Assembly: GCA_018825365.1 (NCBI GenBank)
Contig: JAHJEV010000003.1
Coordinates: 238,619-302,618, forward strand
Direction of reading: 5' to 3'
Length of the DNA stretch: 64,000 nucleotides
From: Patescibacteria group bacterium
Lineage (GTDB): Bacteria; Patescibacteriota; WWE3; UBA101185; UBA10185
Shown here: in pieces, positions 4,535 to 57,253 of the stretch
How the letters are laid out: the number at the start of each line of letters is the position of its first letter
Position numbering within the stretch: position 1 is the stretch's first letter
Made by a program: the position numbers and the translations under genes
The notes under the pieces: model-generated
The model's database searches: none
What the model saw: the letters and a program-made list of their open reading frames with translations, nothing else
Told to the model about the DNA's origin: nothing

Positions 4535-6577
4535 TTACAACTGAACAGTTATTTTTTTATCGGTCGTCAGCTCGATGTTCTGCTTCTTTCCGTTAGTTAT
4601 TATTATGTAATTCTCTTTATCAATTCCCGCCTGTTTCTGAATAGTTAAGTTGTAAGTATTACCTAATACTGTGTTTTCCGGCAGGTAATACTTAAATGTC
4701 ATTTCTTTTACCTCTCCGGGTCCAAGTTCGACATATCCGCTAAACCATACTTTATCTCTTTCCTGATCAGAGAGGTTCAAACTTTCGTCTTCCGAGCCGG
4801 TTGTTGATATAAGTTCGGAGCCGGCGGGAGCATAAACCCTGACCCAATCTCTAAACCTTTTAACAAACGGTGCGTAGTCTCCGTCAGGTTGCGTGTAAGT
4901 ATACTTGATATTAACTGTGTTTACCCATTTCGCACCCTCTTTTGCAAGTGTGTGTGTAATCTCCTTATGCGTGAACCAATTCGTCTTATCGCCACCAAGA
5001 TTTGTCGAAACAACCATTAAGTAATCTCCGACTACTTTGTCCTGGATTCTCCCCCCAATACCGTAGCTATCCACCAGAGCTTGGGCTTCGGTATCAAACA
5101 AATACAACGAAACGTGCTTTCTTTTTGCGAGATCTACACCCTTCTCAATAAGTTTGGGCCAAATATCGCTGTCCGATTGGAAAACATTGAGAAGCATGGC
5201 CTGCATTAAATCCCCAAGAACTTTCTTTCGGTTTGTTTGTTCAGCAAGTGCTAATGACGCGATTTTTTCAAGCTCTAAAACCACATTATCTTTGGTGTAT
5301 GTAACACCATTTACAGTTACGGGGCCTGTGACTTCCAAAAGTTCCTGGATTACATAAGTATCAATCATAAATATCCCATCGACCTGTTTTATCTCGTAAG
5401 GATTTATGGTTCCTGCCAAGTTATAAAACCTCATAAAATCAGTCATGGACGTTGGAAGATCTGGAGAGTAGTTCATATCCCTTGCAAACCAGTGTTCGAC
5501 CTTCAAAAGTCTTGTATAGGGAGTCGGTGCACTTGGGAAAGTATAATAGTAATCAATAATCTGCAAAGTTAAATCTACACTGTACATATCCTTTGATGTG
5601 AAATCGGAATCCAAAAGACCATTTGTGATCTTAAAGGTAGCGTAATTGGTCATAAACCCTCCGGTGGGTCTTATTTCTTTATCGTTTTGCATTATTATCA
5701 TGTATCTTTTTGTAGGAGTCCCAACCGCTAAAACCTGAGGAATTATTTGTAATGCTTTTTTAATATCCGGGGCGTAAGTATCAGCCTGAGAAAGAGTATC
5801 TTTAATAAACGCAACATTTGATCTTAGTGCAAACTTTCCAATTTTTACCGGATATTTGTTTACGTTAATCGGGGCAAGCTCTTCACCAATTTTTGCAACC
5901 TTCAAAATTACACCATCCATTTGATCCGCAACCTGTGGCATAACTGAAATCCATCCCTGGAAAGCTTCCATCAAGCCCTCTGCTTTTACGATCTCTTGAT
6001 CAGGAGATACTTTAAGACCTGCCGCACTTGCGAAGGGCGTAATTATTGTTGATGTCTCTCTTAAAGCATCGATAGCGTAAAGACCAGCATTAATAAAGCG
6101 GTCCGAGTCCGCATAGAATTCCTTGGCTTTAAAAAGACCAAGATTTTTCGCCCACCCAAATCTCTTCTCTTTATCGGCTTTGAGTATATTTAAATCCTTT
6201 TCTGCTTTATCCAAAGCTTCCGCCAAAGCAACAAGATCCCTTCCCCTAAGGGACTCACTTATCTGGGAACCATCATTTTTCAAAACCTTTGCGGTACCAT
6301 AAAGCGCCATCGCGGGACGTATGGCTACAACGTAAAGAATAATTAAAATTACAACCAGAGGAAGTAAAATTGTTAAACCTAATTTTCTTAGTTTTTTCAT
6401 AGAGTTATTATTTCCTGCCGGGTGAAATTCTGTTAATAAATTGCCTTTATTACTCCCGGGTAAATTTTCATTAGTTTTTGGTTTTTGCAAAACTTCTGGC
6501 TTTGAAGCTTTGGCACTATCCTGCAATTTTGTATTGCCGTTTGTTTGAGCAGCACCCCAAAATTTTGTTCTTGCCAT
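4535..6577 (-). CDS. Membrane-anchored exported protein of unknown function (possibly DUF4012-like), partner of the priming transferase
   Basis: It has a cytoplasmic low-complexity N-terminus, a single TM helix (LGLTILLPLVVILIILYVVAI) and a ~600-aa extracytoplasmic domain. The likely start is the ATG at 6577 (MARTKFW...), which has an AAGGAG RBS 7 nt upstream and forms a TAATG stop/start overlap with the transferase. The ORF track extends the ORF to 6631. Confidence 0.5.
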   Translation of the reverse strand: MARTKFWGAAQTNGNTKLQDSAKASKPEVLQKPKTNENLPGSNKGNLLTEFHPAGNNNSMKKLRKLGLTILLPLVVILIILYVVAIRPAMALYGTAKVLKNDGSQISESLRGRDLVALAEALDKAEKDLNILKADKEKRFGWAKNLGLFKAKEFYADSDRFINAGLYAIDALRETSTIITPFASAAGLKVSPDQEIVKAEGLMEAFQGWISVMPQVADQMDGVILKVAKIGEELAPINVNKYPVKIGKFALRSNVAFIKDTLSQADTYAPDIKKALQIIPQVLAVGTPTKRYMIIMQNDKEIRPTGGFMTNYATFKITNGLLDSDFTSKDMYSVDLTLQIIDYYYTFPSAPTPYTRLLKVEHWFARDMNYSPDLPTSMTDFMRFYNLAGTINPYEIKQVDGIFMIDTYVIQELLEVTGPVTVNGVTYTKDNVVLELEKIASLALAEQTNRKKVLGDLMQAMLLNVFQSDSDIWPKLIEKGVDLAKRKHVSLYLFDTEAQALVDSYGIGGRIQDKVVGDYLMVVSTNLGGDKTNWFTHKEITHTLAKEGAKWVNTVNIKYTYTQPDGDYAPFVKRFRDWVRVYAPAGSELISTTGSEDESLNLSDQERDKVWFSGYVELGPGEVKEMTFKYYLPENTVLGNTYNLTIQKQAGIDKENYIIITNGKKQNIELTTDKKITVQL

Positions 6578-7218
6578 TAAAATGCTCCTTTTCTTGTCAA
6601 AACTACGTATGGTGTTTTTAGCACTAACCATAAATCATACAAGAAAGAATACTTTTCTGCATATTCTGCATCCAGCTTTACCCTATCAACAAACCCTATC
6701 TCCGATCTTCCACTTACCTGCCAAAGACCGGTGAGGCCCGGTTTAACACTTAACACTTTATCTAAATACTTACTTGCTTCCGGAAATCTTTTTGTCTGTT
6801 CATCAAGTTCGAAAAAATAGTAGGCCCTTGGACCTACCAAACTCATTTCCCCTTTTAGTATGTTTATAAACTGAGGAAGTTCATCGAAACTGGATTTTCT
6901 GATAAACACACCCCCCTTAATAATTCTCGGGTCCTCCTCTGAGTCTAGTTTGTAATTATTCCTAACATACTTCTCATATAACTGAACATCTTTAACCAAG
7001 ATGTCGTGGGAATTAGGATACATGGATCTAAACTTATAAAAATGAAAGGATTTCTTTCCTTTCCCAACTCTTTCAGGAATATCAGCAAATATCGGACCTT
7101 CCGGAGATACCAGTTTTATCCACAAAGATATAACGATCATTATAGGAAAAAACAAAACCAAACCAACCAGCGCGCCAACAATGTCTATTATTCTTTTAAT
7201 ACAATTTCTGTACAACAT
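6577..7218 (-). CDS. Polyprenyl-phosphate sugar-phosphate transferase (bacterial sugar transferase, WbaP/PglC-like monotopic PGT)
   Basis: The DELPQ and SLVGPR motifs, a single N-terminal re-entrant helix and the ~210-aa size are typical of small phosphoglycosyl transferases. Confidence 0.85.
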   Translation of the reverse strand: MLYRNCIKRIIDIVGALVGLVLFFPIMIVISLWIKLVSPEGPIFADIPERVGKGKKSFHFYKFRSMYPNSHDILVKDVQLYEKYVRNNYKLDSEEDPRIIKGGVFIRKSSFDELPQFINILKGEMSLVGPRAYYFFELDEQTKRFPEASKYLDKVLSVKPGLTGLWQVSGRSEIGFVDRVKLDAEYAEKYSFLYDLWLVLKTPYVVLTRKGAF

Positions 7219-7232
7219 TCCGATTTATAATA

Positions 7233-8336
7233 TTATACCTTAACCAACCTTTTGATTTCTTTCTGAAAAAAAGACTGACTAAAACTTTTGGCTCTTTCCT
7301 TGCAATCCGCGGGAGAATACTTTTTTGTATCGAATGAACTTAACACATTTGCTAAACAATCAGAAGTCTGTTGATCAAAAAACTCACCTGTCATACCCTC
7401 GAAAATACTTTCCAAAACACCTCCGGCTTTGTAAGCAATTACGGGTTTTCCACAAGCCATAACTTCCAAAGGAACTATACCGAAATCTTCTTTTTGAGTG
7501 ACAATCAATGCTTTGCAGTTTCTCATAACATCTGCCTTATCTTTATCATTTAAATACCCCAAAACCTCAATTGTCGGACTGGCGAGAGACTTAAGCCTTT
7601 CAAAATCCGGGCCCTCCCCATAAACTCTTAGTGGTAATTCCAGGGCATTACAGGCCTCAACAGCAACATCTACCCTCTTCCAAGGAGCAAGTCTCGTAAC
7701 AACCAAGAAATAATCTTTGCCTTTAGGCGAAACGTTTTCAAAATCTTTGTAGTTAATAAAAGGATGAATAACCTCGCTATCCCTTCTGTAATATTTCTCA
7801 ATTTTCCTTTTTGTCGCTAGCGAGTTTGCTATAAATACGTCGACATTCTGGGCAGCATTAAAATCAACAATTCGTAAATAGCAAAGAGCCATTTTTAAAA
7901 AGGACTTTGAAAGAAATCTAAAAGGTTTCAAAAAACCAAACTTCTCGTTTTCAAAATAAGAATCAGACTCCCAGAACATTCTTCCCGGAGAATGCATATA
8001 ACAAATATGCTTTGTTGTGGGTTTTGTAATTATATGGTGAGCAAACCTTGACGAAGATGAGATGACAACATCAAACTCCGAAAAATCAAAACTTTCAAAC
8101 GCCAGTGTATGAAGAAAAAATGCTGAGTAGTAACGGTTTAATTTAACGGCAAACGGAAATTTCTGAAGAAACGATATTTTCACGATTCTTCCCTTTTGGG
8201 AAAACCTTTCCAGCCATTTCTCTGATGCAACACTTGTATAAAGTGGGGCATCTGGGTACATATCGGATAGTTCTTCTACGATTTTCTCGGCGCCTCCAAA
8301 TTGAATAAGGTCATCGCAAACAATAGCTAATTTCAT
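7233..8336 (-). CDS. Glycosyltransferase family 4
   Basis: It has GT-B architecture with an ...FGIVPLEVMACGKPVIA... E-x7-E-like region in the C-terminal half. Confidence 0.75.
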   Translation of the reverse strand: MKLAIVCDDLIQFGGAEKIVEELSDMYPDAPLYTSVASEKWLERFSQKGRIVKISFLQKFPFAVKLNRYYSAFFLHTLAFESFDFSEFDVVISSSSRFAHHIITKPTTKHICYMHSPGRMFWESDSYFENEKFGFLKPFRFLSKSFLKMALCYLRIVDFNAAQNVDVFIANSLATKRKIEKYYRRDSEVIHPFINYKDFENVSPKGKDYFLVVTRLAPWKRVDVAVEACNALELPLRVYGEGPDFERLKSLASPTIEVLGYLNDKDKADVMRNCKALIVTQKEDFGIVPLEVMACGKPVIAYKAGGVLESIFEGMTGEFFDQQTSDCLANVLSSFDTKKYSPADCKERAKSFSQSFFQKEIKRLVKV

Positions 8337-8356
8337 AGTATTATAGCTATTATATA

Positions 8357-9505
8357 ATGAAACTAATGAAAATCGGACTTAATGGACAAAAACTATTGAT
8401 AGACAGCCCAGCCGGACCTGAAAAGTATACATACAACCTATTCCAAGCTCTTGCGAAAATAGATAAAAAAAATAAGTATATTATTTATCTGGATAAAAAA
8501 CCGGGTAAGGAGTGGTTCAAAAACCTAACTTGCAACAATCCAAATTGCTCATACGTTGTTATTCCTAATACACTTTTTTGGACACAGATAAATTTGGCTG
8601 CCGAGCTTTTAAACAATCCTCCGGATGTGTTTTTCACTGCTATTCACACTATCCCAATGGTAAGAAGTTCCAAAACTAAGTTTGTGACTATGATTCACGG
8701 GCTCGAATACAAATACACTGCTGGATACGATAATCCTATATACAGATTCAAAATAGACAGGCCCGTCAAATACACAGCACAACATTCAGATAAAATAATT
8801 GTTCCCTCCCAAGCAACAAAATCAGCTTTGCTAAAACAAACTTGGGGTATTGATAGAGAAAAAATTGAAATCATTTATGAGGGGGTAAACACCAATTTCA
8901 AGAAAAAAACAGTAAAAGATGTGAATCTTATAAGAGAGAGGTATGAAATTGGGCAGTCGTCCTACCTTCTTTTTGTCTCAACTATCCAACCCAGAAAAAA
9001 TATTCCAAACACCGTTGCAGCCTTTTCAAAATTAATAAAGGAAAACACAAAATTCAAAGACACAAAGCTTTTACTAGCAGGAAAGTTTGGTTGGGATTTT
9101 AATGAGTCTTTGGACTCACCTAAAAAATATGGGGTCGAGAAAAATGTACTGTTTTTAGGCAGAGTTTTAGATGAAGACCTTCCGTCTTTGTTCTCAGGAG
9201 CCAAAGGATACATAAACATGTCTTTAGAGGAAGGGTTTGGCCTTCCTCTGTTGGAGGCAATGTCGTGCGAAACCCCCTGTTTGGTTTCTGATATTCCCGC
9301 GTTTGATGAAATAGGAAGTGGATTTCCAGTTTTTGCCGATCCAAACGATATAGAAAACATAAAAGAAGGAATGATAACAATACTTTCAGGTAAGGTCTCT
9401 GATGAGCATAGAAAGGAATCAAGAAAATATGCTCAATCATTCACGTGGGAAAATACGGCAAAAAGGACGCTAGCTGTTTTGGAGAATCTCGTTAAAAACG
9501 CCTAA
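8357..9505 (+). CDS. Glycosyltransferase family 4
   Basis: The EGFGLPLLEAMSCETPCLVSDIPAFDEI motif is typical of Glycos_transf_1. Confidence 0.8.
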   Translation: MKLMKIGLNGQKLLIDSPAGPEKYTYNLFQALAKIDKKNKYIIYLDKKPGKEWFKNLTCNNPNCSYVVIPNTLFWTQINLAAELLNNPPDVFFTAIHTIPMVRSSKTKFVTMIHGLEYKYTAGYDNPIYRFKIDRPVKYTAQHSDKIIVPSQATKSALLKQTWGIDREKIEIIYEGVNTNFKKKTVKDVNLIRERYEIGQSSYLLFVSTIQPRKNIPNTVAAFSKLIKENTKFKDTKLLLAGKFGWDFNESLDSPKKYGVEKNVLFLGRVLDEDLPSLFSGAKGYINMSLEEGFGLPLLEAMSCETPCLVSDIPAFDEIGSGFPVFADPNDIENIKEGMITILSGKVSDEHRKESRKYAQSFTWENTAKRTLAVLENLVKNA

Positions 9506-10633
9506 AGTTTGATCTGCGGTCTTATCCCAACTGTACTTCATAATATTTTTGTAACCCTTATTTATAAGATCCTGTCTAAGATCAGCGTCTGTAATAAGTA
9601 AGTTAATCTTCTCCGCCATGTCATCAATGTTTAGCGGATCAAAGTATAAAACTGAATCACTATAAACTTCCTTGTGAATTGGAATATCAGAAATTACACA
9701 AGCTTTACCGAAATACTGAGCCTCCATAGGGGTCAAACTAAATCCCTCTTTTAATGATGGGAAAATGTAAGCTTCACATTCTTTTCTCATACCGCAGGTC
9801 TCCTCGTCAGTTATGTATTCCCTCATCCCGGGCAACAACACTCTTTCACCAAGCCCCATACTAAAAACCAGCTGACTGATGTTTTCGGAAAATTTATCCT
9901 TTTTGCCAACAAGTACAAGCTGACCGTTGTAATTATATTTCTTAATCAAGACCTCAAATGCTTGGATTAAACGAGGAACATTTTTATGTTCATACATGCT
10001 GCTTATATACAAAAGAAATGGTTTGTTGATTCCAAACTTATCCAAGACTTCATATCCCCTACTCACATCAGCGATTTTTATATCCGGATCTATCCCTTCT
10101 TGGGCGATTACATATTTATCTTTGGAGGTTTGAGGGTAGTATTTGAGAAAATCTTCAAGAACGGTTTGGGCTGGAACAATAATTTTTTTGGACTTTACTA
10201 CTGCCCATTTAAACACCAGTTTATAAACTAGTTTTTTAAGTTTGAAATATGGTTTGAAAAGAGTTGTACCTTTTTCCGTGCTAAATGTATGCATTATTAA
10301 ATCGGGAATAGCGGTAACTAATTTTCCCGGATACAAAACAGGAATATTAAAATGTGGAACATATAAAAGATCTAATTTATATTTGAGTATTTTAAACAAA
10401 AATCTAAACTGCTCATCAAATGAATACCATTTATAGTCCGCTAACACTTTTTCAAAATTGGGATTCTCAGGTTTATAAGCATTAAATCCTTGCGGGCGTA
10501 GAAACACAACGTATCTGTTTAAACCATCTATTCTTTCCAAATGAGTGAGAATGTTTTTTGTGTACCTTCCAGGACCGGCTTCCCCATAGAATCTTGCGTC
10601 AATTCCAATTCTCTTTTGTTTTTCGCTTCTCAC
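9470..10633 (-). CDS. Glycosyltransferase family 4
   Basis: It carries the KEGFSLTPMEAQYFGKACVISD motif. It overlaps the previous GT convergently by 36 nt. Confidence 0.8.
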   Translation of the reverse strand: MRSEKQKRIGIDARFYGEAGPGRYTKNILTHLERIDGLNRYVVFLRPQGFNAYKPENPNFEKVLADYKWYSFDEQFRFLFKILKYKLDLLYVPHFNIPVLYPGKLVTAIPDLIMHTFSTEKGTTLFKPYFKLKKLVYKLVFKWAVVKSKKIIVPAQTVLEDFLKYYPQTSKDKYVIAQEGIDPDIKIADVSRGYEVLDKFGINKPFLLYISSMYEHKNVPRLIQAFEVLIKKYNYNGQLVLVGKKDKFSENISQLVFSMGLGERVLLPGMREYITDEETCGMRKECEAYIFPSLKEGFSLTPMEAQYFGKACVISDIPIHKEVYSDSVLYFDPLNIDDMAEKINLLITDADLRQDLINKGYKNIMKYSWDKTADQTLGVFNEILQNS

Positions 10634-11273: not shown

Positions 11274-11276
11274 ATA

Positions 11277-13223: not shown

Positions 13224-13786
13224 AAACTAACTGTATCCATACCCTGCAAATGCCATGCAGGATCAAAATCGGTTTGTTTGGAATCCTTTTCTGAAATATG
13301 TTTCGGTTCATAAGGCCACTTTAAATCAAATTTCGGATCATTCCATCTTATTATTCTTTCTTTGTCGAGAGTATAAAACTCACTCACTAGATATAGAAAC
13401 TCTGTATCTTTTTCCATGGTCATAAAACCATGGGCAAAACCCTTTGGGATGTACATCATTCTCCTATTTTCCGCCGTAAGCTCTATACCAAAAGACTTAC
13501 CAAAAGTAAGAGAACCAGACCTAAGATCTAAAGACATATCATAAGTAGCACCTTTTAAACATCTGGCAACTCTGATTTCCGCAGCGGGGGGAAGTTGGTA
13601 GTGCATACCTCGGAGTGTGTGCCTTTCTTTTGTTAATGAATTATTAATTTGAACTATTTTTCCTTCTAAACCATGATTTTTGAATTGATTTTCACAATAA
13701 AAACGGGCAAAGAAGCCTCGTTCATCTTCCCTTTTCTCCAAATCAATTATGAACAATCCAGGAATTGGGGTTTCTGTAAATATCAT
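13220..13786 (-). CDS. NDP-4-keto-6-deoxyhexose 3,5-epimerase (RmlC/RfbC cupin family)
   Basis: The sequence ...PGLFIIDLEKREDERGFFARFY...RGMHYQ... is a typical RmlC signature within a 188-aa length. Confidence 0.8.
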   Translation of the reverse strand: MIFTETPIPGLFIIDLEKREDERGFFARFYCENQFKNHGLEGKIVQINNSLTKERHTLRGMHYQLPPAAEIRVARCLKGATYDMSLDLRSGSLTFGKSFGIELTAENRRMMYIPKGFAHGFMTMEKDTEFLYLVSEFYTLDKERIIRWNDPKFDLKWPYEPKHISEKDSKQTDFDPAWHLQGMDTVSL

Positions 13787-14595: not shown

Positions 14596-14788
14596 ATTAA
14601 CACGTGCAAATTTTTTTGTTAACCAAACAAATTACCTTATTTTCCAGCATCGTTTTCTCATGCCAATCTTATAGTTTATAATTAGTAAACGCGGGTTACA
14701 CCATGGCCAAACATTAAGATTGCACCAAATGAACTTGATTGCTTCCTTGCTCATTTCAACGTAAAATACTAAACATGGAGGAACAAAT

Positions 14789-16012: not shown

Positions 16013-17242
16013 ATGAGCAAATCCTTCCAAAAAATCGTATTTGTAGGCTTTGGAAACGTATTTAACGCCATATTGGGGTTTGCGTTCATATCCGCATCGG
16101 CAAAGATATTAGACCTTGAATCCTTTGGAAAATACGCTCTTTTGACCACACTTTTAGTTGCCATATCCAAGCTTATAGATTTCGGCACAAATTCCGTTTA
16201 TGTCGCCAGAGCAATATCAACCGAGGACAAAACGCTTAATAATACCTTCTACACTCTAAAAATCATCCTTCTCACGGCGTCCATTCCGGTATCAATGATT
16301 ATTCTCTTAATATTCAGGCTAACTAGCCTCCATCTGACTTTGTATTTCATCTTAGGACTTATTGCCTATTCCATTAATTACACGCTTGCGCCGATTTTCC
16401 AAAAACTGGAAAAATTCACTCACTGGGTTTTGTTAAACACTCTACCGGCATTGATCAAGGGGACATTTGCAATTTTAATGTTTACAAATTTAATTGCGCT
16501 AACTCTTCCACAAGCATTCGGGGTATTTTCACTTTCTCTTTTTGCAAGTGTCTTTTTAGTATTTTTTGTTCCCAAAGAATACAAAGAATTTAAACTTAAT
16601 TTTTCAAAAATAAAAACTATCCTAAAGGAAGCAGCCCCAGCAGGGCTATCCTTACTTATCTACGAGGGCTGGCCATCAATAAGCAACGCCATAGCAAAAA
16701 TAGCTAAAGACTTTTCAAATGTAGGAATATTCGCCATTGCAGAAAAAATTACAAGCATATTGGCCTTAGCATCAGTGTCTGTATTTACAGTTCTTCTTCC
16801 AAAAAACGCTTACAGGAAAAAACAAAAAGAAAATTACGATTTTAAAGAGATTTTTATGATATCTGCTCTTATACTTTTAAGTGCTTTTATAGGTATCTTT
16901 ATCTCTAAGTTCTTTATTTTAAGATTCCTGGGAGATAAATTCTCAGATTCTATCCCGCTTCTTGGATTCTTGATATTCGCAAGTGCCTTTACCGCGATAC
17001 ACAATTTTATGGAACATTACTTTTTCATTGAAGCCAAAACCAAATACATAATGTTTTTGAATGTCGGAAAACTGGCCTTGTTTTTAATCCTATCTGCCAT
17101 ACTCACACCTGCTTACTCTCTACAAGGATTGGCCATAGCAAATGTTATAGCAGCTCTGGCAGCTCTTGTTGCCACCACACTTATAATAAGTAAGCATCAA
17201 AAAAGAAGGTCTGTTTTAGAAGATAATCTAATACTTAACTAA
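16013..17242 (+). CDS. Wzx-like oligosaccharide flippase (polysaccharide biosynthesis protein, MOP superfamily)
   Basis: A ~409-aa protein with about 12 predicted TM helices and a PST-family-like N-terminus. Confidence 0.6.
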   Translation: MSKSFQKIVFVGFGNVFNAILGFAFISASAKILDLESFGKYALLTTLLVAISKLIDFGTNSVYVARAISTEDKTLNNTFYTLKIILLTASIPVSMIILLIFRLTSLHLTLYFILGLIAYSINYTLAPIFQKLEKFTHWVLLNTLPALIKGTFAILMFTNLIALTLPQAFGVFSLSLFASVFLVFFVPKEYKEFKLNFSKIKTILKEAAPAGLSLLIYEGWPSISNAIAKIAKDFSNVGIFAIAEKITSILALASVSVFTVLLPKNAYRKKQKENYDFKEIFMISALILLSAFIGIFISKFFILRFLGDKFSDSIPLLGFLIFASAFTAIHNFMEHYFFIEAKTKYIMFLNVGKLALFLILSAILTPAYSLQGLAIANVIAALAALVATTLIISKHQKRRSVLEDNLILN

Positions 17243-20088
17243 TTCTCAACTATTGGTACGTAGCCGCCAGCTGCCTTGGGAGTTAAGTACCATAAGACCC
17301 AATCACCATCTGAAGCAACTATATGTGATAACTGTGTATACCCATACACATTTTGAGAATACCTGCCCTCTTTGGTAATAAGTATTAAAGGCTCGTTGCT
17401 AGGGACAGTTGGAACTCTATCCTCAAGATCGGGTCTAAAATCCAATGTTTCAAACTGGCTTTTTGAGTAATAAAGAGCTGTTGGAAAATCTATTCTGTCA
17501 AGATAAACCTTATATTTAGTACCAAAAACCTTATCCTTTTTTACAAGCAATCTGGCCTGAGAACCATTTAGGTCTGATGTGTAAACCATTCCCCTATTTA
17601 GGAAAAGATAAAATAGCGAAAAGGTAAGTAAAAGATACAAGGACAGAAATTTGAAAAGATAAGTATTTGTAAATTTAACTCTTCGCATCACCAAATCCAA
17701 AGTTCTCTCCATAAAACTTCCAACTATCAAGCTTAAAACTGGATAAAGAGGAATTACATACCAAATAAGCTTTGACTTTGCAACCGAGAAAAACAAAAAC
17801 ATGCTTAAAGCCCAAATTGTTAAAAATACAAACCTTTTATCCTTCTTGAAAGATTTAAACAATGAAAACGGAAAAGCTCCCAAAAGCGCAATAAACCAAA
17901 TTCTCATACTGACTTTTAAGACAATCACGTACCAGAAAAAAGGTCTTCCTTTATCTTCGATTGCGCTAAAAGCTCTTCCTAAAACATGATAACCAATATA
18001 GTTTTTCAAAAAGCTCTCGCCAAATTGTACATACATATAAATATGCCAGGGAAGTGCTACTAAAAGACAAGATAAAAACCCAAGCAAATAGTTTAATACT
18101 AATCTTACAGAAAATTTCTGTTTATCAAAAATGAAAAGATATAACTCATAAAGAAAAATTACCAAAAGCGGTAAAAACCCCACCACTCCTTTTACCATCA
18201 CACTCAAACCTGCCAAAAGTCCCGATAAGATCCACAGATATCTTTTATCCCTTTCCTTTGCAAGCCAATAAATAAACAAGGATATTGTCGTGAAAAATGT
18301 CAAAGTAACATCAAGCATGGCCATTCTTGAGTAGTACAGGAAATGAACCGTTGTGATTAGAGCCAGTGCTGATATGAAAGCTGTAGTTTTGTTGAAAAAC
18401 TTTTTGGCAATCATAAAAACTAAAACCACAGTCGCCAAACCAAAAATTGCACTTGGAAGTTTAGCAGACAGAGATGTAAAACCTAAAAGATTCATAAAAC
18501 CTGCCTGCATCCACATAAAAAGAGGCGGCTTTTCATACCAAGGTTTCAAAAGAGTATCCCAATGCAAAGTAACATACTGATTACTAGTTACCATGTTTTT
18601 GGCAATCTTTGAGTATATTGCCTCATCCCAAGGAATTAAGTGATTTACCCCCACATTTATAAAAATTAGATACACCGATATCAATCCGAGAATTCCCAGT
18701 AAAAATCCCACTTTGGAGAAAAAGAAATTTATAATCTTTTTTAAATACCCCTGCCCGATCATTCCAATAGACCAGATTAGAAATATAAAATTAATAATCC
18801 AGAAAAACTCGGAATTATAAGAATAAAAAATTCCCGCTATATACCAACCCAAAACTGCCGACGCCATTCCCAAACCTACCAAAGATTTTGATTTATCTTT
18901 TTCGGTGAAAAATACATAAAGGGGAGCAAAAAGTGCTAAAGAACAAAAAAGGATATACACAGATGTCCCTACGATTCCGGTCTCCGATAAACTCTCGCCC
19001 CAAATCGTGTGGGCAGGAACCCGTGTGTTCAAGGCAGCCGGATCGCGACTAAAAAAAGTCGGTGCTATTTTTGTCTTGCTAAACTGTTCAAAAAAGGATC
19101 CGTAGCCACCGCCCAGTATTGGGTATTTCTCAAAAATCTGAACTGCCCCGGTTAAAAGCATAAGATGTGAATCGTATGAGTCTATTCTGTAATGAAAATA
19201 GTCCTTAACTTTTGCTCTAAAAACACTTTTTCTGTTTTGGTACATTAAAACCGGCGGCGTGGCTATGATTATTCCTGCAAGCAAAACGTACAGTAAACCT
19301 TTTGCTCCGAATTTCTTTAATACCAAAACCGTAACAAATGTGATAAAAGCAAAACCTCCAAGCATCCATGCGGTTCTTGAATTTGTGATAAGTAAGGATC
19401 CGAAAAGCATTATAAAAATAGCTAAGTCAATAATTTTTCTCTTCCAGGATTTATCGGTCAGTATAAAAACACCAAATACCGGTAAAACAGCTGCGATTAA
19501 TGACCCGTAATGGTTCACATCCCAAAAAGTTGAGCCTACTCTTGGAAATTTTCCGGGAACATTCCACAATGCCCCGATTATTTTTCCCGTCTTTTCGTAT
19601 AAAACAAGCTGGATAATTCCAAAAAGGGCTAAAGCAAAAACTATGTATATGTAAAACCTAAGGTACTTTAAAAGTTCCTGGGGGTTGTTCCTAAATACAA
19701 TATAAACATATATACCCAAGGCCACGACAGTTGCAAAAAATCCAAATAGGAAAAGACTCGCTTGTAAATTGGCTGAGAATATTATCGAAACTCCCCTGGT
19801 CAACCAAACAAGTAACAGAATCAAAATAAAAGGATCTTTCAGGTATCTAAGGACAGTTCTTAGGCTTTGTGTCTTTGCAACGTGAAAGTATATTTTTGTT
19901 ATGCCTGCGCACAAAAGCCCCAGCATAAAAACTCTTACAGGCATCAAATCCCATTTATAAAAGCTGAAAAGCTCTTTATGAAGCAAAACCGAAAGAACAA
20001 TCAAAACATATAAGGATAGCTTAAAGTTCCTTAGAATTAATATGTACGAAGCTATAAATATTACCAGTATAATCGCTATATCAATCAT
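17239..20088 (-). CDS. Fusion protein: N-terminal O-antigen ligase/Wzy_C-like polytopic domain and C-terminal ArnT/PMT-like GT-C glycosyltransferase domain
   Basis: Residues ~1-460 are polytopic with ...LITNSRTAWMLGG..., a Wzy_C-like motif. Residues ~470-790 contain ...WDEAIYSKIAKNM...KPWYEKPPLFMW..., the hallmark of the ArnT/PMT (GT83/GT39) family. A ~150-aa soluble C-terminal tail follows. Confidence 0.6.
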   Translation of the reverse strand: MIDIAIILVIFIASYILILRNFKLSLYVLIVLSVLLHKELFSFYKWDLMPVRVFMLGLLCAGITKIYFHVAKTQSLRTVLRYLKDPFILILLLVWLTRGVSIIFSANLQASLFLFGFFATVVALGIYVYIVFRNNPQELLKYLRFYIYIVFALALFGIIQLVLYEKTGKIIGALWNVPGKFPRVGSTFWDVNHYGSLIAAVLPVFGVFILTDKSWKRKIIDLAIFIMLFGSLLITNSRTAWMLGGFAFITFVTVLVLKKFGAKGLLYVLLAGIIIATPPVLMYQNRKSVFRAKVKDYFHYRIDSYDSHLMLLTGAVQIFEKYPILGGGYGSFFEQFSKTKIAPTFFSRDPAALNTRVPAHTIWGESLSETGIVGTSVYILFCSLALFAPLYVFFTEKDKSKSLVGLGMASAVLGWYIAGIFYSYNSEFFWIINFIFLIWSIGMIGQGYLKKIINFFFSKVGFLLGILGLISVYLIFINVGVNHLIPWDEAIYSKIAKNMVTSNQYVTLHWDTLLKPWYEKPPLFMWMQAGFMNLLGFTSLSAKLPSAIFGLATVVLVFMIAKKFFNKTTAFISALALITTVHFLYYSRMAMLDVTLTFFTTISLFIYWLAKERDKRYLWILSGLLAGLSVMVKGVVGFLPLLVIFLYELYLFIFDKQKFSVRLVLNYLLGFLSCLLVALPWHIYMYVQFGESFLKNYIGYHVLGRAFSAIEDKGRPFFWYVIVLKVSMRIWFIALLGAFPFSLFKSFKKDKRFVFLTIWALSMFLFFSVAKSKLIWYVIPLYPVLSLIVGSFMERTLDLVMRRVKFTNTYLFKFLSLYLLLTFSLFYLFLNRGMVYTSDLNGSQARLLVKKDKVFGTKYKVYLDRIDFPTALYYSKSQFETLDFRPDLEDRVPTVPSNEPLILITKEGRYSQNVYGYTQLSHIVASDGDWVLWYLTPKAAGGYVPIVEN

Positions 20089-21221
20089 TTTTTCTTTATC
20101 TCAAGAACCTTTTTGTAAACCTCCAAGGTTCTTTTAGCAGCATTTTCCCAAGTATATTCCTGTCTGATTTTCTCATCAATTAATGGTCTTGGAGCAAAAT
20201 ACTCTTTTTTGATAGCATTTTTAATAGACTTAATATCATCGGGCAAACAAAAGGATGCGTAACCTCCAAGATACTCTTTTGCTCTCAAACCTGATGCCAC
20301 CGCGTTAGTACCGCAATACAAAGCCTCCAAACTTGTAAGACCGGTTGTCTCAAACCAGCTGGCTGAGACACAGACCTTCGCATAATGATAGTAGGAAGGA
20401 AGATCCTTATAAGGAACGCTGTTTACATGGTGTACCCAATCGTATTTTTTGAAACACTTTTTTATAAGTTGATTGTATTCAAAATGTTTTATTACACTCA
20501 TCTGCCCTACAAGAACCAAATGCAAATCCAAAGATGTTTCTTCTCTTAGTTTTTTTACTGCCTCTATAATGCTGATTTGATTTTTCCTGGGCTCCACTCT
20601 CCCAACACATATTATGTAGTTATCAAACTTAAATACCTTTTCAAATTCTGTTGCCTCAATGTATACCCTTCCCACACCGTTTAAAACCTTTTCCCACCTG
20701 ATTTCAACATCAAATGTTCTTTTCAAATCCTCCGCTTCTCTTACAGTTTGAACTAAAACCGTATCTGCCATCTTAAGAACTTCTCTTTGCATATTCTTAA
20801 ATCCCTTAAAAACGCTGGTGAGTGTGGGTTTGAGCATTCTCCAATCAAACAAAGATTTGTAAACATTCTTGAAAGTGTCTCTTTTGAACTGGTCACTAAA
20901 TAAAATCTTGGAAATTCTTCTTATATCAAACACAAATTTATCGTCATATTTTTTCACCTCCTTGACATCGTGATGAATTGGTGAAAGTACCAACGGCTTT
21001 TTAAACTGCTTTGCCTTTTTGGCATAAAAGTATGTCTCAGGAGTCCAATCCAATTGAAAAACATGGATAAGATCATAAGACGCAGGATCATAATCTAAAT
21101 CAGTCTTTATATCCACCTCAACTCCAAGACGTCTCAACTCCTCGGCAGTGTGCTCAACCTGAATTCTATCCCCACCTCTTGTTTCCAAAAGACCTATTCT
21201 TCCCAACATTAAAACTTTCAT
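20085..21221 (-). CDS. Glycosyltransferase family 4/1
   Basis: It has GT-B architecture. The likely start is MKVLMLGR at 21221, 1 nt after the upstream stop. The ORF track extends the ORF to 21269. Confidence 0.65.
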   Translation of the reverse strand: MKVLMLGRIGLLETRGGDRIQVEHTAEELRRLGVEVDIKTDLDYDPASYDLIHVFQLDWTPETYFYAKKAKQFKKPLVLSPIHHDVKEVKKYDDKFVFDIRRISKILFSDQFKRDTFKNVYKSLFDWRMLKPTLTSVFKGFKNMQREVLKMADTVLVQTVREAEDLKRTFDVEIRWEKVLNGVGRVYIEATEFEKVFKFDNYIICVGRVEPRKNQISIIEAVKKLREETSLDLHLVLVGQMSVIKHFEYNQLIKKCFKKYDWVHHVNSVPYKDLPSYYHYAKVCVSASWFETTGLTSLEALYCGTNAVASGLRAKEYLGGYASFCLPDDIKSIKNAIKKEYFAPRPLIDEKIRQEYTWENAAKRTLEVYKKVLEIKKK

Positions 21222-21222
21222 A

Positions 21223-22368
21223 TTATTTATTAAGAAACTTCTGGTACAAACCCAAATAGTTACTAACAAACTTTTGCATCGAATATTCTTTTTCGACTCT
21301 AAGTTTGGACTTGTCCGAAATGATCTTTCCTTCCCCGCCGATTTTTTCGTACAAACCAGTCATTTTTTGAGCTAAACTGTGGGAATTACCTTTTTCAAAA
21401 TAATCAACAACATCATTCCCCACTTCTTTAAGTACCTCAAGGTTTGAACAGATTGTCGGAAGACCCATATATAAAGCCTCAATAAGAACAACCCCAAAAC
21501 CTTCGGCTACTGAGGGAAACAAAAACGCATCAAATGTTGAATAAAACTTAACCTTTTCACACTCATCAAAAAACCCTACGATGACAACCTTATCATTAAT
21601 TTTTAATTCTTTTGCTTTATTTTTTAACTCCTCCTCAAGTTTCCCTCCTCCAGCAATCATTAGGTAAAAGTCTCTCTTGTGAAAAAAATCCGATTTAAGA
21701 AACTTCTCAAATGCCTTCAGTAAAGTTATATGTCCTTTTTCTTCAGTTAGCCTTCCGACTGTTCCAAAAACAAAAGCGGTTTTGGGTATTTCATATCTTT
21801 TTTTAATTTCTTCTTCAAATTCCGACCTTTGATTTGGTGTAATATCATATTTTGTTGTATCCAAAGCATTAGGAATAACAACAAGTTTATCTTCTTTTAT
21901 TCCTTCACCGATTTTTATCTTTTTAACTGACAAGGTAAGAGCAATCTCCGCGTCAGAATATTTATTCACAAAACGCCTATAGATAAATAAATCTAGTTTC
22001 TTTCTAAACTTTCCTATTTGCCACTGAGAAATGGGGGTGTGGCTATGAGAAATTTTTACTTTCACACCAGCCTTGTTTCCTGCAACCAAAGCATTACAGA
22101 TAGCCTTAAGTTCGTGAGCATGGATAACCTCTATGCCTTTTTGCTTAATAAAAGTTACAAGTTCTTTAATGTATGGGTGGTCAATATCCTTTTTAATCTG
22201 CTTTACGAAAACCTGCGCACCCAATCTTTTAAATACTTCTGTCATTTCCCCATCCGGGCACCAGACATAAACCTCGTTTCCTGCTTTAATCATACCTTTA
22301 ACAAGATCGTTAACATGCCACTCCATTCCTCCATATTTTCCTGAGTTTAAAACATAAAGTATTTTCAT
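21223..22368 (-). CDS. Glycosyltransferase family 4
   Basis: It has the N-terminus MKILYVLNSGKYGGME... and the AEGFGVVLIEALYMGLPTICSN motif. Confidence 0.8.
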   Translation of the reverse strand: MKILYVLNSGKYGGMEWHVNDLVKGMIKAGNEVYVWCPDGEMTEVFKRLGAQVFVKQIKKDIDHPYIKELVTFIKQKGIEVIHAHELKAICNALVAGNKAGVKVKISHSHTPISQWQIGKFRKKLDLFIYRRFVNKYSDAEIALTLSVKKIKIGEGIKEDKLVVIPNALDTTKYDITPNQRSEFEEEIKKRYEIPKTAFVFGTVGRLTEEKGHITLLKAFEKFLKSDFFHKRDFYLMIAGGGKLEEELKNKAKELKINDKVVIVGFFDECEKVKFYSTFDAFLFPSVAEGFGVVLIEALYMGLPTICSNLEVLKEVGNDVVDYFEKGNSHSLAQKMTGLYEKIGGEGKIISDKSKLRVEKEYSMQKFVSNYLGLYQKFLNK

Positions 22369-23573
22369 ATTTTATTCATATTTTCAGATATCAGACTTAA
22401 CATTGTATAAACTTTACCTTCCCAGGTGTTTTTACTTGCCTGTTCTTCTCGAAGTTTTATCTTTTCTTGCGAATTTTCCTCAAGCGCCCTTCTTATATTC
22501 TGTGAAAACTCATTTGGGTTTTTAGCTATGTAACAAACTGAAGAAAAAGGTGTATATGAAGGTAAATCGGTTACAACAACAGGAAGGCCCGCGGCTAAAT
22601 AATCTAAAAATTTAACTGGGAAGCACCCACCAACAGTGTAATCATTTAGCTGATATGGAATTATCATGACATCAAAGTTAGCCAAATACATAGGCATATC
22701 TTCATATTTTTTGGTTCCCAAAAAGAATACGTTTTTAAGATCCCCAAACCCAAGCTGCTTTGAAGAAATATTTTTATCCTTCAAAGCCACCGGTCCGATA
22801 ACAACAAAAGAATACCCCGGATAGTCTGATGCTACTTTTTTGAATAGCTGCTTATCAAATTTGTACTCATCCAGCGCTCCAGTAAAAGCAATGATCGGAC
22901 GGGGGATGTTTATTAGGTTTTCTGGAACCTCTTTTATTCTGCTTTTTATTTTGATAAACCTGTCGTAATCACCAACGTTTGGTGTAAAATAGCAATTCGG
23001 ATTGTACTTTCTAAGTTTTTCAACAAGACCCGGAGTTGTTGCAAAAACAATATTTGCGCGGGATGCTAAGAGTTTCTCCTGGTCAGAAATTTTTTTCCTT
23101 TTCTCCAGAGTGTCATATTTTGGGAAAGCTTCATAATTATCCACACAATCGTAAACCAAAAAATCATGCTTTATATATTTCAGATAATTCTCCAAACCCT
23201 CAAGTTCAACATGATAAACCCAAAGAATAGTTTTTCTTTGACTATCAAATAGTTGCTGCGCGGCGGTATCTATCTTTTTTGCATGTCTGACAGAAAGATA
23301 CTTTGTAAAATGATGGAAGTTTAAAGGTGAAAAAATCTCCAAGAATTCCGCTTCTTTTTTTCTCCATGTGAAAAATCTACTTATTGACCACTTTCCCTGA
23401 AACAGATACTTCAAAAATATTCTTCCAAAATTTATCGGGGGGTCCACAAACAAAACATTATGACCAAGCTTTGGCAACCTTCCCATAACATGTCTTTTGT
23501 TTGTCCATAAGGGAAAGTCCCATAGCTGGTTTGAAAGGCAGATAACATTGTATTTATCTTTTTCTTGCGCCAT
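22365..23573 (-). CDS. Glycosyltransferase (GT4-like)
   Basis: It has a GT-B-like layout. The likely ATG start is at 23573 (MAQEKDKYNVICLS...). The ORF track extends the ORF to a GTG at 23639. Confidence 0.55.
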   Translation of the reverse strand: MAQEKDKYNVICLSNQLWDFPLWTNKRHVMGRLPKLGHNVLFVDPPINFGRIFLKYLFQGKWSISRFFTWRKKEAEFLEIFSPLNFHHFTKYLSVRHAKKIDTAAQQLFDSQRKTILWVYHVELEGLENYLKYIKHDFLVYDCVDNYEAFPKYDTLEKRKKISDQEKLLASRANIVFATTPGLVEKLRKYNPNCYFTPNVGDYDRFIKIKSRIKEVPENLINIPRPIIAFTGALDEYKFDKQLFKKVASDYPGYSFVVIGPVALKDKNISSKQLGFGDLKNVFFLGTKKYEDMPMYLANFDVMIIPYQLNDYTVGGCFPVKFLDYLAAGLPVVVTDLPSYTPFSSVCYIAKNPNEFSQNIRRALEENSQEKIKLREEQASKNTWEGKVYTMLSLISENMNKI

Positions 23574-23828
23574 ATATCTTAAGTAATTATAGAGTAAACA
23601 GAGAGAAATTACTTCAGAAAATATATGCACATATAGCACCTAAAACATACCACACCATTCGATGATAGGTGAAAACCAAGATTTCTTTCCACTTCTTGCT
23701 TATAGAAAGTAACTAAAATTATGGCTTTTATAGTACAAAATAAGCAAAATTTAGATAATTTTATACTCATACGTAGCTTTACACCCTTAGGTACAGTGTA
23801 TAAACACGTTCCATCATAGTTAACATTT

Positions 23829-25997: not shown

Positions 25998-27383
25998 CTA
26001 AAGGCACTTGGGACAGGCTTTGTCTAAAAGCTTTAGCTTAACCATAACTCTTCTCACATTAAACATAAATTCCGAGTCTTTAATTGACCAAAGCCAGGAT
26101 GTGTTTTTGTTACCCTGATCATAAGCGGCATGCCATATACCATCGAAGAAAAACATTCCAAATATCTGAACAAGAACAGAGAAAATTAAAGTTCCAATAA
26201 AAGCCTTTTTGTATTTTTTATAAATATCAGAATTTAAAAAAGGAACGATCAAAAGAATTAAATAAGGAATAACGTCCGAGCTCATTCTGTAACCAAATGA
26301 GTAACCTCCATACCAATGCTTCCATAAACTTATGATAAAGGTGTGAAAGATTACAATAAGGAAATAAACTAAATATTGGATATTTTCGTGCCAGCCTTTT
26401 CTCATAGCAATACAAAAGCCAATAATAGAAAACACAAAAATTGGAGAATAAACCAAAATACCTTTACTCGGAGACAACCAAACACCAATCAAACTCACCG
26501 GGAAGGGAGACACCCAACTTCCCAAAAGCTGGGTTGCATAACCTTGGTTTTGTATACCTACATAGTATTTGTTGTTATACCAAAGAAAAAATAATACGTT
26601 TAAAGCAAGTCCCACAAGAATACATAGGGCTGCCTTTGTAAAGATTTTTAAATTTGCTGATTTCATAAAAACCAATGTCACAATAAAAGCAAGGCCTAAT
26701 AGTGCTGTCGGACGGGAAAGGATTGCTAATCCGAAAAACAAACCCGACAGAAAAACGTCTGGAAGCTTCTTATCTTTGTCCATGCTGTTTAGGTAGTTAA
26801 GAATAAAGTAAAGGCCTAAGATTGAAAACATTTGAAGAGTCCCGTGTTGCCACATTGACTGAGAAACCATCGCAAAGTTTACCGTTCCAAAAATATAAGC
26901 GATTGTAAGAAGTAAAGATTTCTTCTCATCAAGAAAGTGCTTTTTGAGCAAGATATATAAGAACGTTCCGGAAGCCGAAACTATTAACATTGAGGAAATC
27001 TTTGATAAGAAAATCATATTTTCCCAAGTTACAGGCATACCAAGTTTTATCGGAAGATAAAATACCGGGAGAGATACTAAAGGAGTGATAATAGGAAAAG
27101 CTGAAAGATAGTGATTATTAACTTTTTCTAGGTAATACGGGGTTAGTCCCCTAAGTTGATTTTTGTCATCCGGTTGGGGATACCTTTGAATCATAGTATT
27201 GTAATAGGAATCCAGATACAGAGTCTTTTCCTTTATTATCGAGGCGGGAAGAAATAACGCAGGGACAGTATCTTCAGATTGGACAACAAGTCTGTTTATT
27301 CCTGTTTTATAAACGAATATCCAAGAAAAAAAGAGTACAAAAAAAGAAATAAAAAATAATTTTAGTGAAATATATTTTCCCAT
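25998..27383 (-). CDS. Polytopic membrane protein, putative GT-C-type glycosyltransferase
   Basis: A 461-aa protein with more than 10 predicted TM helices and an extracytoplasmic loop after TM1. No soluble catalytic motif was found. Confidence 0.4.
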   Translation of the reverse strand: MGKYISLKLFFISFFVLFFSWIFVYKTGINRLVVQSEDTVPALFLPASIIKEKTLYLDSYYNTMIQRYPQPDDKNQLRGLTPYYLEKVNNHYLSAFPIITPLVSLPVFYLPIKLGMPVTWENMIFLSKISSMLIVSASGTFLYILLKKHFLDEKKSLLLTIAYIFGTVNFAMVSQSMWQHGTLQMFSILGLYFILNYLNSMDKDKKLPDVFLSGLFFGLAILSRPTALLGLAFIVTLVFMKSANLKIFTKAALCILVGLALNVLFFLWYNNKYYVGIQNQGYATQLLGSWVSPFPVSLIGVWLSPSKGILVYSPIFVFSIIGFCIAMRKGWHENIQYLVYFLIVIFHTFIISLWKHWYGGYSFGYRMSSDVIPYLILLIVPFLNSDIYKKYKKAFIGTLIFSVLVQIFGMFFFDGIWHAAYDQGNKNTSWLWSIKDSEFMFNVRRVMVKLKLLDKACPKCL

Positions 27384-52946: not shown

Positions 52947-52949
52947 TTT

Positions 52950-56566: not shown

Positions 56567-57253
56567 TCAATTCGTAAATCTAAACTTGATTAACGACCAG
56601 ACGGCTTTAATACCATCTCTCCACGTTATCTTTTTACCCTCACCAAAACTTCTCCCCTTATAATTAATCGGAACTTCTTTAATTCTTAGTCCAGACTTTA
56701 GTATTTTTGCGGTTATCTCAGGCTCAAACTCAAATCCTTCGGATTTAATATTCAGTTTTCTTACAAAATCTCCCGGCATGAGCTTATAACAGGTTTCCAT
56801 ATCGGTCAGTTTTACTCCAAACAAAATATTGGTAGCGAGTGTTAAGATCTTGTTTCCAAAATAATGAAGGGTAGTCATTTTTTCGTAACTTCCAGAGAAT
56901 CTAGACCCATAGACTACATCAGCATTGTTTTCCTCAAGCGTTCTCAAAAGCTTTTTATAATCCTGCGGGTCATATTCAAGATCCGCGTCCTGAACGATCA
57001 CATACTCTCCACTTGTATGCGCAAAACCTACCTTCAAAGTGTCTCCCTTTCCTTTGTTAGCAGTTTTATAAATAACTTTCATATCAGGATATTTCTTTTC
57101 CAGATTCTTTAATATTTCTACTGATCCATCACTTGAAGCATCGTCTACTATAACAATCTCAAGATCGACACCATCAACAGATCTGACCAAATTCACCAAC
57201 TGCTCAATTGTATTTTTTTCATTATATACGGGTATAACAACCGAAAGCTTCAT
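56567..57253 (-). CDS. GT2 glycosyltransferase, DPM1-like (polyprenol-phosphate hexose synthase)
   Basis: It has LSVVIPVYNEKNTI, VIVDDASSDGS and QDADLEYDP motifs and is soluble at 228 aa. Confidence 0.8.
   Translation of the reverse strand: MKLSVVIPVYNEKNTIEQLVNLVRSVDGVDLEIVIVDDASSDGSVEILKNLEKKYPDMKVIYKTANKGKGDTLKVGFAHTSGEYVIVQDADLEYDPQDYKKLLRTLEENNADVVYGSRFSGSYEKMTTLHYFGNKILTLATNILFGVKLTDMETCYKLMPGDFVRKLNIKSEGFEFEPEITAKILKSGLRIKEVPINYKGRSFGEGKKITWRDGIKAVWSLIKFRFTN

Follow-up and report, generated by a model that had tools for sequence, protein, structure and literature searches.

The 64,000-nucleotide stretch analyzed here (the window), which comes from a WWE3-lineage member of the Patescibacteria, carries on its minus strand a gene (17239..20088; ATG start, 949 codons and a TAG stop) whose product of 949 amino acids is a single polypeptide uniting an O-antigen-ligase-type module (residues 1-444) with an ArnT-type GT-C glycosyltransferase module (residues 460-949). 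A first-pass annotation had described this open reading frame (ORF) as such a one-polypeptide fusion, and its exact coordinates and quoted motifs are borne out: NSRTAWMLGG occupies residues 236-245, DEAIYSKIAKNM residues 488-499 and WYEKPPLFMW residues 517-526. The 949 codons, together with two hidden Markov model (HMM) matches and at least 120 full-length homologues, place the ORF far beyond chance. In the NCBI record the protein is named "GT39 family protein", a name that leaves out its ligase half, and the JGI label for some of its homologues is "ArnT-like glycosyltransferase/O-antigen ligase".

Domain architecture and conserved residues

A Pfam scan recovered two non-overlapping regions, both above the gathering cut-offs and belonging to the families that had been anticipated. 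The first corresponds to Wzy_C (PF04932; residues 224-379, 41.9 bits against a cut-off of 31.7), whereas the second is matched both by PMT_2 (PF13231; residues 520-683, 80 bits, cut-off 26.1) and by PMT (PF02366; residues 466-688, 72.1 bits, cut-off 22.7). The top NCBIfam model for residues 469-836 is ArnT itself (PRK13279), with a score of 105 bits that lies below the equivalog cut-off of 567. The Pfam scan detected neither a MIR domain nor PMT_4TMC, and no GT25 domain; the partner of the ligase module is instead the PMT_2/ArnT-like region.

An AlphaFold2 model built with 115 family sequences (predicted local distance difference test score 91.5; predicted template-modelling score, pTM, 0.90) allowed the boundaries of the modules to be drawn. 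Residues 1-444 (18757..20088, minus strand, as are all parts of the gene) form a 12-transmembrane (TM) WaaL/Wzy_C-like module of the GT-C_B type, in which twelve helices between residues 2 and 444 are accompanied by a β-hairpin loop (173-186) and a long outer region (285-361) preceding TM10. This agrees with the published picture of O-antigen ligases (PMC10920833), which have 12 TM helices and, towards the C-terminus, a long extracytoplasmic loop. A basic-rich, weakly conserved cytoplasmic linker with a short helix at 448-457 (residues 445-459; 18712..18756) leads to the ArnT/PMT_2-like, GT-C_A-type membrane module (residues 460-830; 17599..18711), which is entirely helical. The polypeptide ends in an extracytoplasmic α/β domain (residues 831-949, modeled at 840-949; 17242..17598), defined by the modeled secondary structure and by the Foldseek alignment to ArnT, whose periplasmic domain has the same placement. 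The first-pass annotation had placed the ArnT/PMT region at about 470-790; its hallmark motifs and its likeness to ArnT hold, but the membrane module reaches about 830. The C-terminal domain and the ATGA overlap of the start codon with the upstream GT4 gene are further features beyond that annotation.

In Foldseek comparisons against the PDB the top match of the model was ArnT (5F15; E=8.5e-13, target TM-score 0.66, 565 aligned columns), and WaaL (7TPG_B; E=1.6e-5, TM-score 0.58, 449 columns) was the sole GT-C_B-type structure in the top 50. The other significant matches were GT-C_A enzymes, namely AglB, PglB, STT3, ALG9/12 and Pmt4; Pmt4 and Pmt1/2 (E values of about 1e-5 to 1e-2) ranked well behind ArnT. 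None of RodA, FtsW and WzyE appeared among these top 50. In sequence searches of the PDB the only match was ArnT 5EZM, at E=2.5e-24 for the single sequence as query and at 3.2e-41 for the family profile, and no PMT was matched by either kind of query. The N-terminal half is thus of the Wzy_C/O-antigen-ligase type, as had been claimed from its NSRTAWMLGG segment, by both Pfam and the WaaL fold. A single GT-C domain running through the whole protein, the alternative that the annotation had considered, is ruled out by the two separate HMM and fold matches.

Short loops rich in lysine and arginine alternate along the sequence as would be expected of a protein with a cytoplasmic N-terminus. As the first module has twelve helices, its end and the start of the second module are both cytoplasmic, and the conserved residues of both face outward. 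In the model, accordingly oriented, the conserved loops of the ligase and ArnT-like modules lie on the outer face.

We scored residue conservation in the 115 family sequences and related the C-terminal module to ArnT by sequence alignment, using the PDB chain numbering of ArnT (native numbering plus 3). By this alignment D488 is equivalent to ArnT D55, E519/K520 to E84/K85, D593 to D158, H701 to H265, R705 to R270, K773 to K341 and Y777 to Y345, and all eight positions of the fusion are invariant. The codons of D488-E489, in the motif WDEAIY (18622..18627, minus strand), specify an invariant acidic pair in the first outer loop that aligns with ArnT D55/E56, and those of E519-K520, in WYEKPP (18529..18534, minus strand), correspond to the YFEKP motif. 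The signature motifs of ArnT are RYA and YFEKP (PMC5377068); their counterparts in the fusion are IY(S/A) and WYEKP, such that the tyrosine of RYA is kept, while its arginine and ArnT His267 are not conserved in the fusion family.

For the N-terminal module the point of reference is the ligase CmWaaL of C. metallidurans, in which R191 and R265 bind undecaprenyl diphosphate (Und-PP) and H313 activates the acceptor (PMC10920833). The candidate counterparts in the fusion are R238 (TNSRTAW; codon 19375..19377, minus strand), a putative Und-PP phosphate-binding arginine, and H360 (VPAHTIWGE; codon 19009..19011, minus strand), a putative acceptor-activating histidine; both are invariant in the 115 sequences and in all the divergent and split forms described below. 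Their spacing of 122 residues is the same as that between R191 and H313 of CmWaaL. Candidates for the second arginine are R291 and R301, both on the long outer helix. More broadly, R183, D190, N192, R238, H308, H360, E365 and E369 are kept in the fusion, in a clade at about 33% identity, in the Wzy_C paralogues, in the class of about 850 residues and in the split genes.

Phyletic spread, related architectures and gene neighborhood

Among 5.8 billion proteins searched, at least 120 clusters align with the query over 92-100% of its length (mostly 97-100%) at identities of 47-89%; all of them have both Pfam domains, and wherever the source is named it is Patescibacteria or candidate division WWE3. 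The fusion is encoded by 95 species-representative genomes, including the complete genome CP006914 (RAAC2_WWE3_1), so that the search for it in related genomes that the first-pass annotation had proposed gives a clear answer: the gene belongs to the conserved core of WWE3/Patescibacteria. Among 80 loci that we fetched for comparison a single intact ORF spans both halves in 65, while 12 are cut by contig ends and three (L060, L071 and L079) are broken by frameshifts, none of them at the domain boundary. In an exhaustive profile search of 1.84 billion representative sequences, full-length fusions made up about 40 clusters at the 50% identity level, and most of the 64,299 relatives recovered are single-domain proteins. 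This agrees with the earlier statement that the two domains are normally separate proteins, as does the existence of a split form in which they are encoded side by side. Many of the records for loci L002-L078 are titled "uncultured Candidatus Saccharibacteria bacterium" and that of L076 "Candidatus Woesearchaeota archaeon"; their gene content and synteny match WWE3, and these labels look unreliable.

The split form, found on one 285-kb metagenome contig and five others, consists of a 460-aa Wzy_C gene followed after 55 nt by a 497-aa PMT_2 gene, in the same N-to-C order as in the fusion. The Wzy_C protein is 35% identical to the N-terminal half and the PMT_2 protein 34% identical to the C-terminal half, with every ArnT-type residue kept. 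The pair is flanked by orthologues of GT4_e, GT4_d and GT4_f, by a second Wzy_C paralogue and by Wzx. In one example (L083, 7001-9932, on a contig shared with L086; also in L084) the two genes lie in different frames, the spacer contains an inverted repeat (GTCGTC...GACGAC) and the 428-aa second Wzy_C paralogue lies two genes downstream. Taken together, the split adjacent form and the fusion constitute Rosetta-stone evidence for cooperation between a WaaL-type ligase and an ArnT-type transferase.

Two further architectures were recovered. A sister class of about 785-875 aa and 27% identity is likewise a fusion of Wzy_C and PMT_2, and occupies the same syntenic slot beside GT4_c, the phosphoglycosyl transferase, DUF4012 and RecO; in it the fusion is directly followed by a GT2 gene with ArnC as its best match. 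Examples are L081 (9001-11625) and L082 (9001-11553), which correspond to P0258 and P0190, together with P0188, P0192, P0205, P0254, P0260 and P0223. In the clade at about 33% identity the fusion is intact (1014-1038 aa) and is directly followed by a gene of about 740 codons, the N-terminal half of whose product is a Wzy_C paralogue in which R238 and H360 are retained, whereas its C-terminal half (about 300 aa) has no Pfam match (L073, 11047-13272; L075, 8506-10746; also L072, L074 and L076). Wzy_C scores above the Pfam cut-off in the divergent, paralogous and split forms as well.

Comparison of the ORFs of the 80 loci with the window proteins by blastp revealed a conserved cluster of about 20 kb, situated near the mraZ-mraW genes. 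Its order is hyp461, GT4_f, GT4_e, GT4_d, the fusion, a convergent Wzx and a variable region, after which follow GT4_c, GT4_b, GT4_a, a Bac_transf phosphoglycosyl transferase, DUF4012, RecO and a tRNA synthetase. The three glycosyltransferase genes GT4_d, GT4_e and GT4_f (20085..23639, minus strand) lie directly upstream of the fusion in the same operon, and in the sequence ATGA (20085-20088) the start codon of the fusion and the stop codon of the adjoining GT4 gene overlap. With its called TTG start, GT4_d (20085-21269, minus strand) shares 46 nt with GT4_e; the likelier start is an in-frame ATG (MKVLMLGR...) that lies 16 codons further on and would abolish this overlap. Beyond the variable region, GT4_c, GT4_b, GT4_a, the WbaP-type phosphoglycosyl transferase (6577-7218) and the DUF4012 gene (4535-6631) make up the rest of the conserved module (4535..10633) by synteny.

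The Wzx-like flippase gene (Polysacc_synt; 16013..17242, plus strand) is convergent with the fusion; in most relatives a homologue follows the fusion, and nearly all of these are convergent too. The stop codons of the two genes share the sequence CTAA at 17239-17242, read as TAA on the plus strand and TAG on the minus strand, as the first-pass annotation had noted. Its remark that no room is left for independent terminators is likewise true, but the arrangement is an ordinary one: in 39 of 48 relatives the 3' ends overlap by 4-68 nt, with 4 nt the commonest, and around the junction we found nine terminator-like sites against 6.2 ± 2.2 expected from shuffled sequences, which is not beyond chance, and no strong junction hairpin. 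We therefore reject special regulation at the overlapping stops.

At the head of the operon in relatives stands hyp461 (25998..27383, minus strand), a conserved polytopic GT-C_A protein of a divergent PMT_2-like kind, which matches NCBIfam LA_3751/3752 and whose homologues contain PF13231 and are named GT39. We had considered it as a hidden Wzy polymerase, and this is ruled out by its PMT_2/GT39-like character; as it belongs to GT-C_A, the conserved core has no Wzy/WaaL-type protein other than the N-terminal module of the fusion. Judged by its predicted gene functions, the cluster has all that is needed to start a glycan on undecaprenyl phosphate (Und-P), to lengthen it through about six GT4 enzymes and to flip it with Wzx, and the fusion would be the obvious user of the flipped Und-PP-oligosaccharide.

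A predicted maker of the donor for the C-terminal module is a GT2 protein of 228 aa of the polyprenyl-phosphate-sugar-synthase class (56567..57253, minus strand; NCBIfam AglJ 4.6e-36, ArnC 4.4e-17, and also Dol-P-hexose transferase and PpgS), which we assign tentatively to the synthesis of an Und-P-sugar and which lies about 37 kb from the fusion. Among the 50 window ORFs scanned we found no aminotransferase, formyltransferase or deformylase of the 4-amino-4-deoxy-L-arabinose (Ara4N) pathway, but only a UDP-glucose dehydrogenase and the ArnC/DPM1-class GT2. The scanned ORFs also included no LCP gene or other ligase; neither a Wzz/PCP-type co-polymerase nor a small GtrA/ArnE/F-type flippase was identified.

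Proposed function and its alternatives

These observations suggest that the fusion probably acts outside the membrane, where two coupled steps would yield a surface glycoconjugate. Specifically, we propose that it is a bifunctional extracytoplasmic enzyme that would transfer an Und-PP-linked oligosaccharide en bloc, and one sugar derived from a polyprenyl-phosphate-sugar, to the same acceptor; on the combined strength of sequence, model and analogy we give this proposal a somewhat better than even chance of being right. The N-terminal module would take the flipped Und-PP-oligosaccharide and transfer it to the acceptor, with R238 and a second arginine (R301 or R291) holding the diphosphate and H360 activating the acceptor hydroxyl. 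The C-terminal module would move a single sugar from its polyprenyl-phosphate carrier by means of D488, E519/K520, D593, R705 and Y777. Fusion, or adjacency where the genes are split, would couple both steps on one acceptor. GT2 genes of the polyprenyl-phosphate-sugar-synthase class, present in the window and beside the fusion in the sister lineage, are consistent with the second of these activities.

WWE3 and other Patescibacteria are generally regarded as single-membrane cells that lack lipopolysaccharide (LPS). The strict function of WaaL, ligation to lipid A-core, is hence unlikely for the fusion, and its acceptor must differ from that of WaaL; the candidates would be a surface protein and, on the pattern of TacL or lipoteichoic acid, a membrane lipid or glycolipid. 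A comparison with the known systems shows where the fusion agrees with each of them and where it departs. With WaaL (PF04932, GT121, GT-C_B; 7TPG) it shares twelve TM helices and a long outer loop before TM10, and its candidate arginine and histidine, R238 and H360, have the 122-residue spacing of R191 and H313 in CmWaaL, but its host is not expected to make lipid A-core and it has a second transferase. With ArnT (the Und-P-L-Ara4N:lipid A transferase; GT83, GT-C_A; 5EZM, 5F15) the C-terminal module shares the fold including the C-terminal soluble domain, the key residues and the YFEKP-like WYEKP. It falls short of the ArnT equivalog score, lacks the arginine of RYA and His267, and lies in a window with no Ara4N genes seen, in a host where no lipid A is expected; with the low score and the missing pathway nearby, the module is best described as ArnT-like rather than ArnT. 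The GT39 protein O-mannosyltransferases (PMTs) share with it the PMT HMM and the acidic DE motif, but the module is without MIR and PMT_4TMC, and PMT structures rank below ArnT. Finally, the C-terminal module and the ArnC/DPM1-class GT2 genes fit the three-component systems of extracytoplasmic glycosylation, in which a GT2 Und-P-sugar synthase and a flippase act with a GT-C enzyme (GtrC, YfhO or ArnT). The fusion differs from these in that its GT-C module is covalently tied to a ligase and that a flippase of the GtrA/ArnE/F type was not identified here.

The closest analogue in logic, though not a fellow member, is WadA of Brucella and other Rhizobiales, in which a GT25 domain adds the core sugar that the ligase domain then uses (PMC9938171, PMC10920833). 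Both proteins join an O-antigen-ligase module to a second glycosyltransferase that serves the same acceptor, predicted as such in the case of the fusion. The partner in WadA is a soluble cytoplasmic enzyme of the GT-A type, which uses a nucleotide sugar donor and is N-terminal to the ligase, whereas the partner in the fusion is a membrane GT-C_A module that follows the ligase in the chain, has an outward-facing active site and would draw on a polyprenyl-phosphate-sugar donor. By analogy with WadA, the ArnT-like module most likely installs the sugar that the ligase then extends; decoration of the ligated product is less likely. The functional coupling proposed in the first-pass annotation, still a prediction, is strengthened by the split adjacent form, and is refined here to a ligase rather than a polymerase and, on the WadA analogy, to priming rather than decoration. 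TacL (RafX), the lipoteichoic acid ligase of Streptococcus pneumoniae, sets a precedent for a Wzy_C-type ligase in an organism that has no outer membrane; it has been proposed to act with inversion, passing an Und-PP-linked chain to a membrane glycolipid (PMC5727136). TacL stands alone, with 397 aa, and we liken it to the fusion by description, not by sequence comparison.

Each half of the fusion comes from a known superfamily, and the pairing of a ligase with a membrane GT-C_A enzyme is not previously described in the literature searched, where we found no account of a Wzy_C and PMT_2/ArnT fusion either in general or for WWE3. It extends the concept of bifunctional O-antigen ligases, of which WadA has so far been the only case, to a membrane GT-C partner. 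As there is almost no experimental knowledge of the cell envelope of Patescibacteria and the wider candidate phyla radiation (CPR), the fusion also offers a testable entry to the glycoconjugate that they display and to its anchor. We further entertain, as a more speculative and rather doubtful extension, that an ArnT-like step on a membrane lipid, possibly scavenged from a host, is followed by WaaL-like ligation onto the installed sugar, giving a lineage-defining LPS- or lipoteichoic-acid-like lipoglycan in these single-membrane bacteria. If true, this would be the first tandem GT-C_B and GT-C_A enzyme, and the first ligase to be combined with an acceptor-priming enzyme in one outward-facing assembly.

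Several points weigh against the bifunctional ligase proposal. The N-terminal module gave no sequence match to solved WaaL or to anything else in the PDB, either with the single sequence or with the 115-sequence profile, and the equivalence of R238/H360 with R191/H313 of CmWaaL, which remains a candidate one, comes from position in the model and spacing rather than from alignment with WaaL sequences. Pfam Wzy_C takes in certain polymerases and protein O-oligosaccharyltransferases as well. Where a lineage has two Wzy_C paralogues, as some do, each of them carries the histidine, so that there this residue alone cannot separate ligase from polymerase. The candidate Und-P-sugar synthase lies outside the conserved core around the fusion in WWE3. 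The sister class of about 850 aa mostly lacks D488, E519 and D593 and has lost the H701-Y777 segment although the fusion is kept, which implies that the partnership does not always depend on catalysis by the C-terminal module.

The alternative that fares best, though we judge it unlikely, is that the N-terminal module is a Wzy-type repeat-unit polymerase of a classical Wzx/Wzy pathway, with the ArnT-like module modifying the polymer and its attachment, for instance by an LCP protein, encoded elsewhere. The presence of polymerases in Wzy_C is compatible with this, and so are a conserved core that has the phosphoglycosyl transferase, several GT4 enzymes and Wzx but no other Wzy candidate, the occurrence of DUF4012 in capsular and exopolysaccharide clusters of Gram-positive bacteria, and the want of an LCP gene or other ligase among the window ORFs scanned. 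Against this, the position at which O-antigen ligases carry His is occupied by Asp or Glu in SEDS proteins and in related inverting (GT-C1) polymerases (PMC10920833), and the invariant histidine of the fusion at the acceptor-activating position favors a ligase. The structural neighbors point the same way, with WaaL but no RodA, FtsW or WzyE among the top 50, as does the failure to detect a Wzz/PCP-type co-polymerase.

Less probable still is a machine for protein O-glycosylation, in which the N-terminal module would be an O-oligosaccharyltransferase of the PglL/PilO type and the C-terminal module PMT-like, with surface proteins such as pilins or the S-layer as targets. PglL and PilO are members of Wzy_C that use a conserved histidine, and the C-terminal module scores above the Pfam cut-offs of both PMT and PMT_2 and bears the DE motif (D488-E489) in its first loop. 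Families involved in pili and cell-cell interaction are prominent in CPR bacteria (PMC6744442). Nevertheless, by PDB sequence and by fold the C-terminal module is much nearer to ArnT, with its lipid acceptor, than to the PMTs, it has no MIR domain or PMT_4TMC match, and none of the proteins conserved in the cluster is a candidate acceptor.

It is quite improbable that only the ligase module is catalytic and that the ArnT-like module is a scaffold or binds the carrier lipid or acceptor. The sister class, in which the fusion persists with D488, E519 and D593 mostly replaced and the segment of H701, R705, K773 and Y777 gone, is the one argument for it, and its C-terminal module may be a pseudo-enzyme partner. 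In the family of the window, in the 33% clade and in the split PMT_2 protein of 497 aa the ArnT-type key residues are invariant, which is hard to explain without catalysis; a non-catalytic module is perhaps to be accepted for the class of 850 aa and is unlikely for the fusion of the window. That an assembly error or frameshift artificially joined two genes, a concern already voiced in the first-pass annotation and one to which the three fragmented loci and the genuinely split form might lend color, can be dismissed as having practically no chance of being true in view of the cross-genome conservation (65 of the 80 independent loci intact, a complete genome among them, and homologues spanning 97-100% of the query down to 47% identity), of breaks that avoid the domain boundary and of a model that packs both modules together.

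Other genes of the window

The variable slot between Wzx and GT4_c is filled in the window by a dTDP-sugar module (10704-15940), which comprises genes for an RmlA-like protein, RmlC, an epimerase/reductase, a 334-aa GT2, an unannotated ORF of 189 aa and, on the opposite strand, a dehydratase. Relatives have different genes or none at this position, which suggests strain-level variation of the glycan. Between GT4_f and hyp461 lies a pair comprising an AbiEii-like nucleotidyltransferase toxin (235 aa), whose gene comes first, and an AbiEi_4-like antitoxin of 193 aa (23829-25110, plus strand). Homologues of this pair were found at this spot in none of the 80 related loci, and it looks like a strain-specific insertion in an otherwise fixed operon.

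Upstream of the operon two large polytopic proteins, neither of which could be assigned to a family, are encoded on the minus strand. The first, hyp561 (27871-29556), spans the membrane about 11 times; many of the related loci encode a weak homologue (27-38% identity), mostly upstream of hyp461. The second, hyp1198 (31815-35411), begins with about 11 TM helices, continues in a large outer region and ends in a further TM helix, and has only a weak match to Golvesin_C; sequence searches of the PDB returned nothing useful for it, for hyp461 or for DUF4012.

Further along, a GDP-mannose 4,6-dehydratase joined to a C-methyltransferase (Methyltransf_13/23/14) in one protein of 776 aa is encoded beside a 534-aa B12-binding radical SAM enzyme (40258-44220, minus strand); from their domain content the two would be a route to C-methylated deoxysugars. 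A second GT-C-rich block (46030-58869, minus strand) contains three tandem PMT_2 paralogues of 545, 509 and 534 aa, an LPG_synthase_TM protein, two more Wzx-like flippases, a DUF2079 protein of 715 aa, the 228-aa GT2 and a fourth PMT_2 protein of 539 aa. Almost all of the 64-kb window is given over to glycan machinery, in a lineage whose complete genomes measure only about 0.9 Mb.

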